A program made the translations under genes and the position numbers. A model generated the notes under the pieces. The model did not search any database. It had not been told where the DNA came from and saw only the letters and a program-made list of their open reading frames with translations. A stretch of DNA of 10,972 nucleotides from a virus: UHGV virus genome UHGV-1700184; one strand, written 5' to 3'. The first letter of the stretch is position 1. Every line of letters begins with the position of its first letter. Below, piece after piece: positions 2,991 through 6,917 of this stretch.

Positions 2991-3959
2991 TTAGTAGGTT
3001 ATTTTTGTTGCGAATACTTCGCCTTTTACGATGGCTGTTATGATATTTTTAGCAACATCTTCTGATGCGCCAACCTTGATAAGGTCAGCAAGTATTTTGT
3101 TATTTACTTCTTTCCGGTGAGCTTTATCCTTTGCTCTACACTCTTCCTCTTCCTTGATTCTTTTTTCTTCTGCTATTCTGGCTTGCTCTTTTGCTTCAGC
3201 CTCGCGCCGGATTCGTTCAGCCTCCTCCTGTGCTTTTCGGCGTTCTGCTTCAATTGCCGCCTGCTTTTCTCTTTCAGCTCGTTCTGCTGCCTCTTTTGCT
3301 TCGCGCTGTGCTCGTTGCTCAGCTTCAATGCGTTCACGCTCTGCACGTTCCGCTGCGGCCTTAGCTTCTGCTTCTCGCCTTGCTGCTGCTTCAATTTCGG
3401 CTTTTGCCTTTGCTTCGGCTTCTGCTCTGGCTTTCTCTTCAGCTTCTCTTTTTAAGCGTTCTTCATGCTCTCGCTTTTCCTGCTCCGCTTTGAGTCTTGC
3501 CTCTTCTCTTTGGCGGTCAAATTCGCGATCCATCAAAATCGCTATTTCATGGTCAGACTCAATTTGCTTTGCGAGAGCTTCAGCTGCTGCCTTAGCTTCT
3601 TCTTCGGCTTTAATCCGCGCCTGTTCCTCTTCATAATCAGTAAGAGGCTGGCGTGCCTTGGCTTTCAGCTCATCAAGGCGATCACGCACTGTCTTGCGGT
3701 TAGCATCAATTAGCTTTGGAATTTCCTTCAGTTCAGCAACAAGGTCTTTGCCAAGACCATCGAGATATGTTTTCGTCTGCGCAACTTTATACGCCAGAGA
3801 AGCGATCTCCTTTCTGCCCTTTGCCGTTGTGATATCAGGCACAAAGGACATAACTTCACGTTCAACCTTTTGAAGGATTTCTTCAATCTGGTCGGCAGAC
3901 TGAAATACAGTCATTGCATTTGCTTTTTCAATAACAACTAAATCTGTTACTTCACTCAT
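2991..3959 (-). CDS. phage coiled-coil protein with a long E/R/K/A-rich single-helix segment
   Basis: Track ORF, 322 aa, ATG at 3959 preceded by GGAGG. A globular N-terminal ~110 aa is followed by ~170 aa of near-pure E/A/K/R repeats (AEAEAKAKAEIEAAARREAEAKAAAERAERERIEAEQRAQREAKE) and a short C-terminal domain. The DNA is strongly strand-asymmetric low complexity, which creates spurious ORFs in other frames. Confidence 0.8.
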   Translation of the reverse strand: MSEVTDLVVIEKANAMTVFQSADQIEEILQKVEREVMSFVPDITTAKGRKEIASLAYKVAQTKTYLDGLGKDLVAELKEIPKLIDANRKTVRDRLDELKAKARQPLTDYEEEQARIKAEEEAKAAAEALAKQIESDHEIAILMDREFDRQREEARLKAEQEKREHEERLKREAEEKARAEAEAKAKAEIEAAARREAEAKAAAERAERERIEAEQRAQREAKEAAERAEREKQAAIEAERRKAQEEAERIRREAEAKEQARIAEEKRIKEEEECRAKDKAHRKEVNNKILADLIKVGASEDVAKNIITAIVKGEVFATKITY

Positions 3960-3994: not shown

Positions 3995-4306
3995 TCAGGC
4001 TGCTGAGGTTTCTTCTTTCAGGCTTTCGATATATTTACGTGGGTCGTCGTAACATTGGCATTCGCTGTACCAATCTACCCAGCGATCCGTAAGCTCCATC
4101 TCTGATAAATCTTCATCAGTAAGGCTCTCATCCCACATCTCAAGGCCGTTAGCATTGCAGTAGTCAGGCTTGATGTTGTTGTCATACTGAAAGGCATCAT
4201 AATCAGCCAGTGCATCCATCAGGCGAACACCCTCTTCAACACTTGCCACTTCTACAATGAACGGCTTCATAGGTACTTGCGGGATATGCCAGACACGTAA
4301 TTTCAT
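3995..4306 (-). CDS. hypothetical acidic protein, 103 aa
   Basis: Track ORF 3995..4402, but the supported start is ATG at 4306..4304 (MKLRVWHIPQ...) with GGAGG 4 nt upstream; the ATG at 4402 has SD spacing of only 2 nt and would read through a terminator hairpin. C-terminal half is rich in D/E/W/Y. Confidence 0.7.
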   Translation of the reverse strand: MKLRVWHIPQVPMKPFIVEVASVEEGVRLMDALADYDAFQYDNNIKPDYCNANGLEMWDESLTDEDLSEMELTDRWVDWYSECQCYDDPRKYIESLKEETSAA

Positions 4307-4318
4307 ATTTCCTCCGTC

Positions 4319-4346
4319 AAAAAAAATCGCCCTCACACTGGAGGGC
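4319..4346 (-). terminator. intrinsic terminator candidate (minus-strand sense)
   Basis: Stem GCCCTC (4329-4334) / GAGGGC (4341-4346) with a 6-nt loop, followed on the minus strand by eight T (complement of A 4319-4326). Lies directly upstream of the RBS of the 103-aa gene. Confidence 0.6.
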
Positions 4347-4408
4347 AAAGAAGATTTCCAACAATCAGAACAAGTCGGCTCCTGTTTAGTTACGAGCGAC
4401 ATTGCTCC

Positions 4409-4463: not shown

Positions 4464-4491
4464 CCAAAAATAAAGGCCGACTATGCGGCCT
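4464..4491 (-). terminator. intrinsic terminator downstream of the membrane-protein gene
   Basis: Stem AGGCCG (4474-4479) / CGGCCT (4486-4491) followed on the minus strand by TTTATTTTTGG (complement of 4464-4473); 5 nt after the stop at 4496-4498. Confidence 0.65.
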
Positions 4492-4495
4492 GAAA

Positions 4496-4945
4496 TTACT
4501 TAACCAATGATGCTGCATATTCGATAAGGTAAAGCTTTGGGGCCAGCCAAATTTTTAACCAAGTCATATTGGTTACTACACCAATAATAAAAATCCCCCA
4601 CAGAGTCAAAACTCCAACCAATGGCATGATAAGAAGATTAATATCACCTTTGCTATCCCAAACCATTGTCGGCCTGTATTTGGGATTTCCTTTCTCCCAT
4701 GAATATCCTTCATCACCGATTTTACCTGTCTCAACTCTTTGGCACTGCTTCTTCATAAACCAGAAAACCAGTGGGATTGTTAGAATGGCCATTAATGTTT
4801 TAATCAGACTGTCAACCATATTCCATAGCAGCAACTGATGAACAACATCAGGAATCTGTGCCTGGCTAAATGAAACAGCCGCGTCTATTCCATTACTGGC
4901 TTTTTGCAGTAGTTCTACGAGAATCTTGTTTGCTTGTTCTTCCAT
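4496..4945 (-). CDS. small integral membrane protein, 149 aa, two predicted TM helices (candidate superinfection-exclusion or abortive-infection cargo)
   Basis: Track ORF; ATG at 4945 preceded by AGGTGA. Hydrophobic stretches LIKTLMAILTIPLVFWFM and INLLIMPLVGVLTLWGIFIIGVV. By eye the DNA is markedly AT-richer than its neighbours. Has its own terminator, and lies in the N-to-cIII interval where lambdoid phages carry accessory genes such as sieB. Confidence 0.8.
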   Translation of the reverse strand: MEEQANKILVELLQKASNGIDAAVSFSQAQIPDVVHQLLLWNMVDSLIKTLMAILTIPLVFWFMKKQCQRVETGKIGDEGYSWEKGNPKYRPTMVWDSKGDINLLIMPLVGVLTLWGIFIIGVVTNMTWLKIWLAPKLYLIEYAASLVK

Positions 4946-4954
4946 ATATCACCT
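4937..4954. repeat. 18-nt direct repeat, copy A (RBS and start of the membrane-protein gene)
   Basis: TTCTTCCATATATCACCT at 4937-4954 is identical to 5163-5180; on the minus strand both read AGGTGATATATGGAAGAA (SD, ATG, Glu, Glu). Confidence 0.85.
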
Positions 4955-4959
4955 TGATT

Positions 4960-4995
4960 GTAATAAGCATGAAATTATTTACGGACAAAAATAAA
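4960..4995 (-). promoter_or_regulatory. candidate promoter for the membrane-protein gene
   Basis: Minus-strand TTGTCC, 17 nt, TATTAC about 10-45 nt upstream of the RBS; both hexamers are only 4/6 matches, so this is weak. Confidence 0.25.
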
Positions 4996-5084
4996 GGCCA
5001 CCATCAGGCAGCCTTGTAGTTCTGTTTACCAAGTTCTCTGGCAATCATTGTCGTCGTTCGTATTGTCCACACCATTGATTCTTA

Positions 5085-5171
5085 TCAATAGTCGTAGTCA
5101 TACGGATAGTCCTGGTATTGTTCCATCACATCCTGCGGATGCTCTTCGAACTCTTCAAATTCTTCTTCCAT
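5085..5171 (-). CDS. hypothetical acidic, aromatic-rich peptide, 28 aa
   Basis: ATG at 5171..5169 preceded by GAGGTG; translation MEEEFEEFEEHPQDVMEQYQDYPYDYDY. Shares its RBS and first codons exactly with the downstream membrane-protein gene (18-nt repeat). Confidence 0.35.
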   Translation of the reverse strand: MEEEFEEFEEHPQDVMEQYQDYPYDYDY

Positions 5172-5180
5172 ATATCACCT
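5163..5180. repeat. 18-nt direct repeat, copy B (RBS and start of the 28-aa acidic ORF)
   Basis: Identical to 4937-4954. Confidence 0.85.
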
Positions 5181-5304: not shown

Positions 5305-5643
5305 CTATGACCATTTTTTATTTGGATTTCGTTGGTGAGCGTGATTAACAACTCTGTGCATTACATCCTCATATTTTTCATCTTCAATTTTTTCGACATC
5401 GCGAGGAAATGGTGTTGCTAATGCTTTGTCAACTTTGTCCATTGGTTCTTCATTAATCTTATATTCAGGACCGTCATCTATAGCATTAAATCCAGGTGTT
5501 ACACCGTTTTTTAATGCATATGCTATCCTTTTTTCCCATCTCGCTATTCTCCTCCTGTCTCGAGATGTAAGACCTCTATCAGATACTTTTCTGTTTTGTC
5601 CGCGGTCAGGATTAACATAAATAGTCTTTTTCACCATAAGCAT
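5305..5643 (-). CDS. hypothetical basic/acidic protein translationally coupled to N, about 112 aa
   Basis: Track ORF 5305..5649 uses a TTG; the first ATG is 5643..5641, 2 nt after the N stop. Arginine-rich segment SRDRRRIARWEKRIA followed by an acidic C-terminal half. No family recognised. Confidence 0.6.
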   Translation of the reverse strand: MLMVKKTIYVNPDRGQNRKVSDRGLTSRDRRRIARWEKRIAYALKNGVTPGFNAIDDGPEYKINEEPMDKVDKALATPFPRDVEKIEDEKYEDVMHRVVNHAHQRNPNKKWS

Positions 5644-5645
5644 AC

Positions 5646-5951
5646 TCAATAAGCACCGTACGGTAGTTTACTGTACAATTTTATTTTTTGGACTGCATGT
5701 ATTTTGTTTCCTAATGGGTTTGAATCTTTGTAATAAATACTTCTATTTTTTCGAACGACTTCTTCTTTCTTCTTGCAGCAAAGGCTTCCTAGTGATGCTG
5801 CTTTGTCTGCTCTGACGCAACCAGAGAGCTTTAGCGCAATTTTTCGCGCCAGTGCTTCATTACTGCGTCGCTCGGCAATAAGTTCTGCTCTGCGAGCTTT
5901 GTAGCGGCTTTTTGCCGTACCTTTGGATTCTTTCCAGACAATGGTTACCAT
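5646..5951 (-). CDS. N: N-family transcription antitermination protein (phage-21 type)
   Basis: Track ORF 5646..5981; preferred start is ATG at 5951..5949 (MVTIVWKESKGTAKSRYKARRAELIAERR) with AAGGAG 6 nt upstream. GTAKSRYKARRAELIAERR matches the arginine-rich boxB-binding peptide of phage 21 N as I recall it. Cognate boxA/boxB lie upstream. Confidence 0.85.
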   Translation of the reverse strand: MVTIVWKESKGTAKSRYKARRAELIAERRSNEALARKIALKLSGCVRADKAASLGSLCCKKKEEVVRKNRSIYYKDSNPLGNKIHAVQKIKLYSKLPYGAY

Positions 5952-6058
5952 GATGGTCTCCTTTAAGTGGCTTTGGCGCATGACGCGTCGAGGTGCTTAT
6001 CTTCTCGATCGCTGTCTTGCAGCTGCAATTCGCGCCATCCCCAAAACCACTCAAGTTC

Positions 6059-6139: not shown

Positions 6140-6215
6140 ATGGCTTAAATTTAAGACTTCTTAATTTATTGGTCAAGTGCATTTTTGAAGAAAACTTAAT
6201 TTTATGGGCGTGAAT
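6140..6215 (-). promoter_or_regulatory. pL promoter with overlapping OL operator sites
   Basis: Minus-strand TTGACC (complement of 6171-6176), ~17 nt, TAAATT/TTAAAT. Palindromic operator TTAAGA-CT-TCTTAA at 6151-6164 overlaps the -10; a second imperfect palindrome TTGAAGAAAACTTAA lies near 6185-6200. Half-sites match those in OR. Confidence 0.6.
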
Positions 6216-6266: not shown

Positions 6267-6917
6267 TTAAGGAAGGTTTGCTAGCTTGGCATCAACGACA
6301 ACGCCAATGATTTTACAGTTCCCATTGATTTCAATCATTGGGTATTGTGGATTGAGTGGTTTCAGGAATTTTCTACCGGCATCAATAACTAACTTTTTGA
6401 ATGTCGCCTCGTTTTCTCCTTCAAGTTTGGCGACTACCAGCTTTCCATTACGTGGTTCGACTTCTGGGTCGACGAGAATAATCATCCCCTCAGGAATACT
6501 CAGTCCTGCCGGGGCAGTCATTGAATCGCCTTTAACGTCGAGCCAAAAAGAGTCTTCAGAACAATCTACCGTTGTGTCGTACCAGTTATCTATTGCACGC
6601 CTATGATATGGCTCTACAGCTTCCATCCAACATCCTGCGCTTACCCAACTAATTAGAGGATACGAACCTCTTGGATCATGCCTGCTGTGATAGGCAATGT
6701 TTGAAAGACTATCCTCTCCTTTCAACAGGTAATCAGGGGAGCACTGCAAAGCCTTGGCTAAGGCCAATAGGTTTTCGCCATTGGGCTCAGTTTCAGATCG
6801 CTCCCATTGGGAAATAGCAACATTAGACACGCCAACCATCTTGCCAAGGGCAGCCTGCCTAATCTTGAGTTCTTTTCTGCGAGCGCGAATACGCTCACCC
6901 ATCAGTTGTGTATTCAT
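6267..6917 (-). CDS. cI: CI/C2-type prophage repressor (N-terminal HTH, C-terminal S24 LexA-like autopeptidase domain)
   Basis: Track ORF, 216 aa, ATG at 6917. HTH segment QAALGKMVGVSNVAISQWERSE; C-terminal domain carries the catalytic-type GDSM serine motif and a downstream lysine (VVAKLEGE). The N-terminal domain closely resembles P22 C2 repressor as I recall it. Confidence 0.9.
   Translation of the reverse strand: MNTQLMGERIRARRKELKIRQAALGKMVGVSNVAISQWERSETEPNGENLLALAKALQCSPDYLLKGEDSLSNIAYHSRHDPRGSYPLISWVSAGCWMEAVEPYHRRAIDNWYDTTVDCSEDSFWLDVKGDSMTAPAGLSIPEGMIILVDPEVEPRNGKLVVAKLEGENEATFKKLVIDAGRKFLKPLNPQYPMIEINGNCKIIGVVVDAKLANLP

Follow-up and report, generated by a model that had tools for sequence, protein, structure and literature searches.

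What is a gene for a small membrane protein doing inside the early-left operon of a lambdoid prophage, and does it form a unit of its own there? The gene lies on the minus strand at positions 4496–4945 of a 10,972-nt stretch of the virus genome UHGV-1700184 (hereafter the window, meaning this whole stretch). The preliminary description, made from the sequence alone, had presented it as a self-contained moron cassette with its own promoter and terminator, assignable to no family and perhaps acting in the lysogen as an exclusion or defence factor. Our analysis confirmed the 149-aa open reading frame (ORF) and its location in the interval between N (5646–5981) and cIII (2838–2966). The explanation that we favour, taken as a whole and with about even confidence, is that of a genuine accessory gene of the PHROG 3054 family, which sits with its terminator as a cassette in tL2a, would be transcribed from pL and would act at the cell envelope.

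The evidence for a discrete insertion comes from the comparison with lambda. Between the 3′ end of ral and the beginning of the following gene, window and lambda are collinear, with ~95% identity over the aligned flanks, and the sole break in this collinearity is one 521-nt gap in lambda, inside the tL2a terminator. Lambda carries one terminator after ral (...AGCTGCCTGATAGTGGCCTTTATTTTTGGCATAAATAACAG...), tL2a of the tL2 cluster between ral and ea10 (Luk & Szybalski 1983); the Sf6 record names the homologous site tL2A. In the window, a 14-nt direct repeat, GGCCTTTATTTTTG on the minus strand, is present in a left copy at 4986–4999 and a right copy at 4465–4478, spaced by 521 bp. These repeats mark the insertion junctions relative to lambda, and two matches to the 14-nt repeat occurred in 0 of 200 shuffles. 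The earlier cassette reading is supported to this extent: the DNA is a discrete insertion of exactly 521 bp that is missing from lambda at this point.

Both hairpins that had been said to bracket the gene were recovered on the minus strand. The upstream terminator-like element (4986–5015; hairpin 5015–4994; 9 bp, −13.9 kcal/mol, then TTTATTTTT) overlaps the stop codon of the ral remnant. It had been called degenerate, but it is the stronger of the two, the downstream element (4465–4491; hairpin 4491–4474) having 6 bp and −9.7 kcal/mol before an identical TTTATTTTT. The gap within tL2a, together with the 14-nt repeat that bounds it, identifies the upstream hairpin as lambda's own tL2a. Lambda's one tL2a region is thus represented in the window by both hairpin regions, its left half by the upstream one and its right half by the 3′ half of the downstream one together with the flank beyond. 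The 521-bp insertion has split the terminator and doubled it. The downstream hairpin is a chimera, in which a 5′ stem half that came with the gene is joined to the old 3′ half and T-run. The 521-bp cassette of gene and terminator has recombined into a lambda-type tL2a, just after the ral remnant, by way of the 14-nt repeat. The region contains 10 terminator-like sites, versus 2.2 expected, and the next hairpin and T-run of the tL2 cluster (4327–4348, minus strand) stands before gene 17 here and before ea10 in lambda.

The claim that the gene has a terminator of its own also held, as hairpin 4491–4474 moves with it in Sf6, HF4s, Gally and Cronobacter. Specifically, AGGCCGCATAGTCGGCCTTT stands 3′ of the gene in Sf6, HF4s, Gally and two Cronobacter prophages, also where the DNA past the hairpin differs, so that gene and terminator together make up the mobile unit; a Pantoea copy has a different strong terminator directly 3′. 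Among related phages, the cassette is missing in lambda and present in Gally, and Sf6 has a homologous unit. Gene 34 of Sf6 likewise comes after ral and has the same hairpin on its upstream side and, on the other, 'tL2A' with the boundary sequence bsq4, and its N-terminal 42 codons and last ~25 codons are almost identical to those of the window gene at the DNA level. In contrast, the central ~250 nt are unalignable, this centre is 9 aa shorter in Sf6 and protein identity is 52% overall. Near-identical ends around an unalignable centre point to allelic replacement by recombination, not gradual drift. Judged from these alignments, the window and Sf6 proteins are true homologues that carry different alleles of a variable centre.

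The promoter of the preliminary description was not confirmed. Only 40 nt separate the upstream T-run from the ATG, and this leader (4946–4985, minus strand) does contain the strong ribosome-binding site (RBS) noted earlier, AAGGTGA at 4949–4955, four bases 5′ of the ATG. A consensus scan of the minus strand upstream of the gene, made with the sigma-70 consensus only, found no sigma-70-like site. The best candidate by eye, TTGTCC-17-TATTAC, follows an A/T-rich run and scores 8/12; its −10 element is missing the terminal T, and transcription from it would begin on the RBS itself. A promoter within the shared 75 nt upstream of the gene was considered as well, but no site there reaches minimal sigma-70 criteria.

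The leader has a different kinship. In HF4s and Cronobacter, the homologue of the 40–45 nt 5′ of the ATG is the end of the N coding sequence, and the target homologue there begins 8 nt past the N stop or overlaps it. The junction 'N-end, ribosome-binding site, ATGGAAGAA' also precedes an acidic ORF at 5168, and a 21-nt sequence comprising RBS and start is common to this ORF and the target gene (repeat D2, 4934–4954 and 5160–5180). The homology to the N 3′ end and the recurrence of the same junction argue that the leader is a recombination scar rather than a promoter module; by its homology, it is a relic of the 3′ end of an N gene, from an earlier position directly after N. Since the leader has an RBS and lacks a convincing promoter, transcription from pL is most likely on induction, and the gene would then be read within the N-antiterminated early-left operon, with which the MB1 RNA-seq values of the Gally copy (see below) are consistent. 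The pL-like site TTGACC-17-TAAATT (6148–6176, minus strand, 3′ of the repressor gene) is the sole promoter-like site upstream of the cassette on this strand, and N presumably enables pL transcripts to pass the four terminators upstream of and around the cassette.

Base composition does not set the gene apart either. It had been called visibly AT-richer than its flanks, but at 39.6% GC the target is no outlier: the left arm has 43.3%, the Gp157-like gene 40.5% and gene 17 46.2%, and nun is lower still at 36.8%. HK97 gene 15 (Juhala et al. 2000; Cumby et al. 2012) is an example of a lambdoid moron. The cassette resembles morons of this type in being inserted DNA with a terminator directly downstream, in its small inner-membrane product and in its occurrence in differing slots. 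It differs from them in having no recognisable promoter of its own, an N-relic leader and an undeviating composition, and PHROG 3054 differs further in that its starts are often coupled to the upstream gene and that the family is common in virulent phages. The moron architecture seen earlier thus stands in part: extra DNA and an own terminator are present, a credible promoter of its own and a deviant composition are not.

The protein, which had been placed in no family, matches PHROG 3054 (the family of Sf6 gene 34) over its full length (E=4.2e-64; residues 1–149 against profile positions 1–137/137). Distant members from N4-like, phi92-like, Vibrio and Pseudomonas phages match the same profile. 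The family contains 1,738 clusters at 90% identity, and a profile search retrieved 5,094 representatives at 50% identity with E<=1e-3 (2,346 of them with E<=1e-10), all of ~125–170 aa and aligned end to end; this family size and end-to-end conservation rule out a chance ORF in an AT-rich spacer. Databases name these proteins only 'hypothetical', 'TMhelix containing' or 'gene 34 protein [Sf6]'. Pfam and NCBIfam scans of the target protein returned no relative, and a Pfam scan of 150 family members gave scattered compositional matches only, including one weak holin match at E=0.02. A profile search of PDB sequences yielded G-protein-coupled-receptor transmembrane noise only (E ~0.4), and Foldseek searches against BFVD and PDB retrieved family members or noise.

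The gene is widespread and scattered. DNA matches to it occur in 244 of 5,426 complete E. coli genomes (~4%), with a full-length match to the window allele in 130 of the 244 and a match to only part of the gene in the others. Among 50,697 phage records, 178 have a homologue, temperate and virulent phages alike. The temperate carriers are P22-like and lambda-like phages; the virulent ones include, among Schitoviridae, N4-like Ithacavirus, Shigella phage B2 and Vibrio Pariacacavirus. The phi92-like group as a whole (phi92 gp220) and many phages of Vibrio, Pseudomonas and Rheinheimera are further virulent carriers. N4 itself has no homologue, and the gene is sporadic even inside phage genera. Its frequency in virulent phages, and its occurrence in late or structural operons, argue against a lysogeny-specific function.

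Its neighbourhoods are equally diverse. In pL operons, the gene follows N or ral. Homologues of 60–67% identity occur in prophages of Pantoea, Citrobacter and Klebsiella; in the first two, the gene follows holin–endolysin–spanin genes, and in Klebsiella it stands behind a KilA-N gene, past the lysis genes in the late region. In Pseudomonas-type prophages, it lies between head-closure and tail-completion genes, and in virulent phages its neighbours are genes for RNA polymerase II, dUTPase, thymidylate synthase, SSB/PriB or nucleases. Across 20 contexts we found no conserved neighbour gene, and a two-component system was dropped for that reason. In HF4s, Cronobacter, Citrobacter, Klebsiella and Pantoea, the gene begins directly behind its upstream neighbour or overlaps it; in Citrobacter and one Pantoea copy (with an Rz1/LysC-type o-spanin gene), its start overlaps the stop of the last spanin gene. 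Start/stop overlaps of 4 nt were recorded at loci L013 (6001–6453), L017 (5001–5450), L014 (5001–5453) and L023 (4001–4387), where the upstream genes encode an Rz1/LysC-type o-spanin, an Rz-type i-spanin, a KilA-N protein and a dUTPase. Such overlaps with unrelated upstream genes imply translational coupling to them. The target moves horizontally as a module of one gene, which usually becomes part of the operon that receives it and in many cases is coupled to that operon in translation.

Within the protein, two hydrophobic segments (residues ~43–64 and ~101–126) agree with the two transmembrane (TM) helices described before, while the loop between them measures ~36–41 aa instead of ~45. The order is an N-terminal acidic helical domain (residues 1–42), TM1 (~43–64), a basic variable loop (~65–100), TM2 (~101–126) and a conserved C-terminal amphipathic helix (130–149). 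In two alignments, invariant or nearly invariant residues fall in the N-terminal ~42 aa (G19, D21, F26, P32, Q37-L-L, W41) and in the C-terminal ~20 aa (I132-W-x-A-P-K...E142-Y-A), and the TM1–loop–TM2 centre varies in sequence and length. The loop, which the preliminary description had singled out, is hypervariable and the least conserved part of the protein; it is conserved only in a close enterobacterial subgroup (G-Y-S-W...PKY-P-T...WDSKG).

To this alignment evidence, covariation adds a link between the ends. Mean-field direct-coupling analysis of 386 members (effective number Meff 238), with the largest value in four column-permutation controls as the null, returned 24 pairs above all permutation nulls. 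Eleven of them connect the N-domain with the C-helix, including 42–139, 15–141, 9–141, 34–141, 42–138, 30–138/139, 7–147 and 28–144; four more join helix A to helix B in the N-domain, two join TM1 to the post-TM2 segment, and the rest are intra-loop or loop–TM2. Because 11 coupled pairs join the N-domain to the C-helix, the pattern is suggestive of conserved N- and C-termini that pack as one small helical module on one membrane face. Lysine and arginine within 15 residues of the TM ends average 4.8 on the loop side and 2.0 on the termini side, with loop exceeding termini in 93% of the 386 sequences, and the N-domain has a net charge of −3.3. By the positive-inside rule, this bias predicts a cytoplasmic loop and periplasmic termini.

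Published RNA-seq data bear directly on how the gene is expressed. E. coli LF82 harbours, in its prophage Gally, a cassette of 98.2% identity (GALLYPH_30 = LF82_104) that shares the upstream hairpin, leader and downstream terminator with the window. In LB, the repressor alone exceeded 5x the prophage background, the moron cut-off of that study, and Gally was reported as 'devoid of any moron' (PMC9928086). We computed expression from S1 Table of PMC9928086, relative to the Gally median in (fpkm+5) units, fpkm being fragments per kilobase per million. BLB is LB stationary phase and MB6 is macrophages at 6 h; the labels suggest that B1 and B6 are bacteria alone and MB1 macrophages at 1 h. These last three conditions were reportedly defined by Prudent et al. 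in 2021.

GALLYPH_30 stood at 1.2x the Gally median in BLB, 2.4x in B1, 8.0x in B6, 6.5x in MB1 and 5.3x in MB6. It would therefore pass the 5x cut-off in B6 and MB6, and not in LB. RNA at 5–8x background in B6, MB1 and MB6 goes against a lack of transcription in the lysogen, the outcome named earlier as refuting the moron reading; an independent transcript is one of the possible sources of this RNA. For B6, MB1 and MB6, in that order, the values were 133, 128 and 122 for GALLYPH_30; 16, 102 and 28 for N; 61, 166 and 55 for the upstream gene 31; and 29, 33 and 24 for the downstream gene 29. In MB1, N itself is induced, and the pattern looks like pL transcription that largely ends at the cassette terminator. 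In B6 and MB6, GALLYPH_30 is raised while N, cro, O and P are at background. One source of this peak might be a promoter that escaped recognition, situated in Gally gene 31, 5′ of it or within the shared 75 nt. Just as well, the peak may arise because RNA flanked by two hairpins is degraded less than its surroundings. A similar rise in B6, MB1 or MB6 was seen for GALLYPH_20–22 (near xis), GALLYPH_52 (just after Rz) and the mnt-side genes 13–17, again without induction of the early or late operons. Moron calls made from LB stationary phase alone probably miss accessory genes that are expressed conditionally.

Joined together, these results lead to the following sequence of events under the favoured explanation. 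After insertion into tL2a, the gene would be read from pL on induction. Under some lysogen conditions, a hairpin-bounded RNA would also build up, by a weak unrecognised promoter or by greater RNA stability. The product would be a two-TM hairpin protein whose termini form one module, predicted to be periplasmic, and whose TM–loop–TM centre is swapped between alleles. It would then benefit the phage by acting on its own at the cell envelope in the course of infection. An action at the envelope is suggested by a gene that acts singly, has been retained in temperate as well as virulent phages, is tolerated in early, late and structural operons alike, and carries a centre open to exchange. Among such actions, we consider a block of secondary-phage DNA entry, working in the manner of T4 Imm or P22 SieA, the most likely, and we put it forward tentatively, by analogy; the alternative would be to neutralise a host defence based in the membrane.

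The analogy has definite bounds. T4 Imm is likewise a small two-TM inner-membrane protein, made early from among nucleotide-metabolism and replication genes, as PHROG 3054 is in several virulent phages, but Imm has 83 aa versus 149 aa here and the conserved extramembrane termini belong to the window protein. P22 SieA and lambda/P22 SieB are prophage-borne membrane proteins of P22-like or lambdoid phages, and sieB occupies the same N-to-ral interval in lambda and P22. Unlike the window gene, sieA and sieB have mapped promoters of their own, and sieB lies on the strand opposite to pL transcription.

Several observations weigh against the favoured explanation or parts of it. Similarity to T4 Imm was not found (hhalign probability 0.15%; no Pfam Imm_superinfect match at E<=1), nor was similarity to P22 SieA (hhalign 1.1%) or lambda SieB (0.16%; no Pfam SieB match), and these hhalign and Pfam results rule out membership in the Imm, SieA or SieB families. 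The PADLOC-DB v2 scan matched 0 defence families at E<=1; together with the missing similarity to Imm, SieA and SieB, this leaves an exclusion mechanism by analogy only. A literature search (PHROG 3054, Sf6 gp34, early-left-operon membrane genes) found no functional study. In the late or lysis operons of Pantoea and Citrobacter, an exclusion gene would come too late to be of use unless the prophage expressed it as well, and the N-independent RNA peak in Gally argues for a transcript source besides pL. As for the protein, the permutation controls of the coupling analysis take no account of phylogeny, whole-segment lysine and arginine counts are nearly balanced, leaving the topology a prediction, and the AlphaFold2 model of the window protein is poor (predicted local distance difference test, pLDDT, 64) and does not reproduce the N–C packing. 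The model of a Vibrio-phage homologue reached pLDDT 77, with helices at 3–18, 24–73, 80–101, 105–111 and 113–125.

Next in order stands the explanation from which the analysis set out, a self-contained moron with its own promoter and terminator that is transcribed from the repressed prophage and protects the lysogen by exclusion, abortive infection (Abi) or defence. We regard it as doubtful, at around one chance in four by our own reckoning. The discrete insertion relative to lambda and the terminator that moves with the gene fit it, as do the neighbours nun and gene 17, which place the gene among exclusion and anti-exclusion genes. The Gally copy, above the cut-off in B6 and MB6 with N, cro, O and P at background, speaks for it too, and the weak TTGTCC-17-TATTAC site after its A/T-rich run could be cited in its favour. 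That site does not pass the promoter scan and would start transcription on the RBS, the leader is an N coding relic, and starts overlap upstream genes in five other contexts. The RNA peak, for its part, may reflect a stabilised segment between two hairpins, and the LB value and the published absence of morons in Gally speak against this explanation. The frequency of the family in virulent phages, the undistinctive GC content and the lack of a PADLOC match count against it too.

A membrane-anchored anti-defence protein is unlikely. Made early by the infecting or induced phage, it would inactivate a membrane-associated defence of host or prophage (Rex-, Abi- or Zorya/Kiwa-type), as a counterpart to its neighbours ral, gene 17 and abc. 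The position in an early operon next to anti-restriction and anti-exclusion genes, and the sporadic single-gene occurrence in early regions of virulent phages, agree with this role, and a conserved module with an exchangeable centre fits a conserved effector of variable specificity. Against it, Pfam, PDB-sequence and Foldseek searches gave no similarity to known anti-defence proteins, and the late-operon positions in some prophages would be odd for early counter-defence.

Those late positions are what an accessory of lysis timing, that is, an antiholin-like or spanin-modulating membrane protein, would have in its favour: the Pantoea, Citrobacter and Klebsiella homologues follow lysis genes, with starts overlapping the spanin stop in Citrobacter and one Pantoea copy, and the module, if periplasmic, would face the i-spanin and the holin loops. 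We nevertheless judge it improbable. The window gene and most lambdoid copies are in the early pL operon, far from lysis genes, in virulent phages the gene lies among replication and nucleotide-metabolism genes, and no holin or antiholin family was matched. The slot after Rz is a general accessory-gene slot in lambdoid phages, as lambda bor exemplifies. A holin or antiholin proper was rejected, with no consistent holin Pfam match in 150 members and the window copy in the early-left operon instead of a lysis cassette. Least probable is a membrane tether for phage DNA replication or nucleotide-metabolism complexes, which the virulent-phage neighbours (thymidylate synthase, dUTPase, SSB/PriB, nuclease and RNA polymerase II genes) and the operon shared with recombination genes in lambdoid phages would suit, but which is at odds with the absence of a conserved partner gene across contexts, the presence of the gene in structural and lysis operons, and its sporadic occurrence within genera and absence from N4, unlike a core replication function.

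The cassette is set in a mosaic lambdoid (P22/HK620-like) prophage of E. coli, of which the window covers the immunity and early region. On the minus strand, a C2/cI-type repressor gene lies at 6267–6917, and the pL operon opens with the N-like antiterminator gene, whose product has a phi21-like arginine-rich motif, GTAKSRYKARRAELIAERR. The HK022-type nun gene (5305–5649, minus strand; phrog_5632, E=9e-71; C-terminus ...KKWS) overlaps the N stop with its start and is followed by a terminator-like hairpin at 5306–5289 (minus strand). The N and nun tandem also occurs in phages mEp235, mEpX1 and Kapi1, at 98–99% identity. The acidic ORF upstream of the cassette (5085–5168, minus strand; phrog_16060, E=1e-17) encodes a very acidic 27-aa peptide, MEEEFEEFEEHPQDVMEQYQDYPYDYDY, perhaps a small DNA mimic or a decoy. 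A Cronobacter prophage remnant has this ORF on the other side, 3′ of the target homologue. Fused behind it is a 3′ remnant of ral of ~65 nt (5004–5070, minus strand; stop TGA at 5006–5004). The remainder of ral is absent, and this restriction-alleviation gene is lost or replaced in the window prophage.

Downstream of the cassette, a homologue of P22 gene 17 (PF17420) was called mechanically as a 135-aa minus-strand ORF at 3995–4402. This ORF spans the hairpin 4348–4327, and the Pfam GP17 match begins only at residue 33; the true start is probably the ATG at 4306 (GGAGGAAATATG), giving a product of ~103 aa. It is followed by a gene for a 322-aa coiled-coil protein (2991–3959, minus strand), a homologue of Sf6 gene 33. 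Ala, Glu, Lys and Arg abound in this protein, which has long EAKA/ERA repeats, and its gene causes an extreme AT skew (−0.76) and a GC bump. Other records name it 'TolA', 'coiled-coil' or 'phi80 Agt-like antitoxin', and it matched no Pfam family. The minus-strand series continues with cIII and then kil, RecT and others, and the plus strand carries cro, cII, O, a DnaB-type helicase gene and ninB.

As an insertion, the cassette is ordinary lambdoid mosaicism, but an unusually clean example of it, in which a gene and half a terminator were pasted in via a 14-nt repeat. The Gally data represent condition-dependent prophage expression in a Crohn's-associated E. coli strain. The protein family is a more valuable lead than the cassette: it comprises thousands of clusters that are in none of Pfam, NCBIfam, PADLOC and PDB, and its architecture of covarying termini and a swappable centre is clear. 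PHROG 3054 may, and we advance this only as a tentative proposal, be a new class of envelope protein, with a two-TM anchor, a periplasmic acidic module of N- and C-termini and an exchangeable specificity centre, that blocks competitors or disarms a membrane defence and that prophages switch on conditionally. If this is true, virulent and temperate phages would both use PHROG 3054 against competing phages or membrane-based defence. Assigning the family a function, whichever it is, would annotate a gene in ~4% of complete E. coli genomes and in many virulent phages of the therapeutic type.

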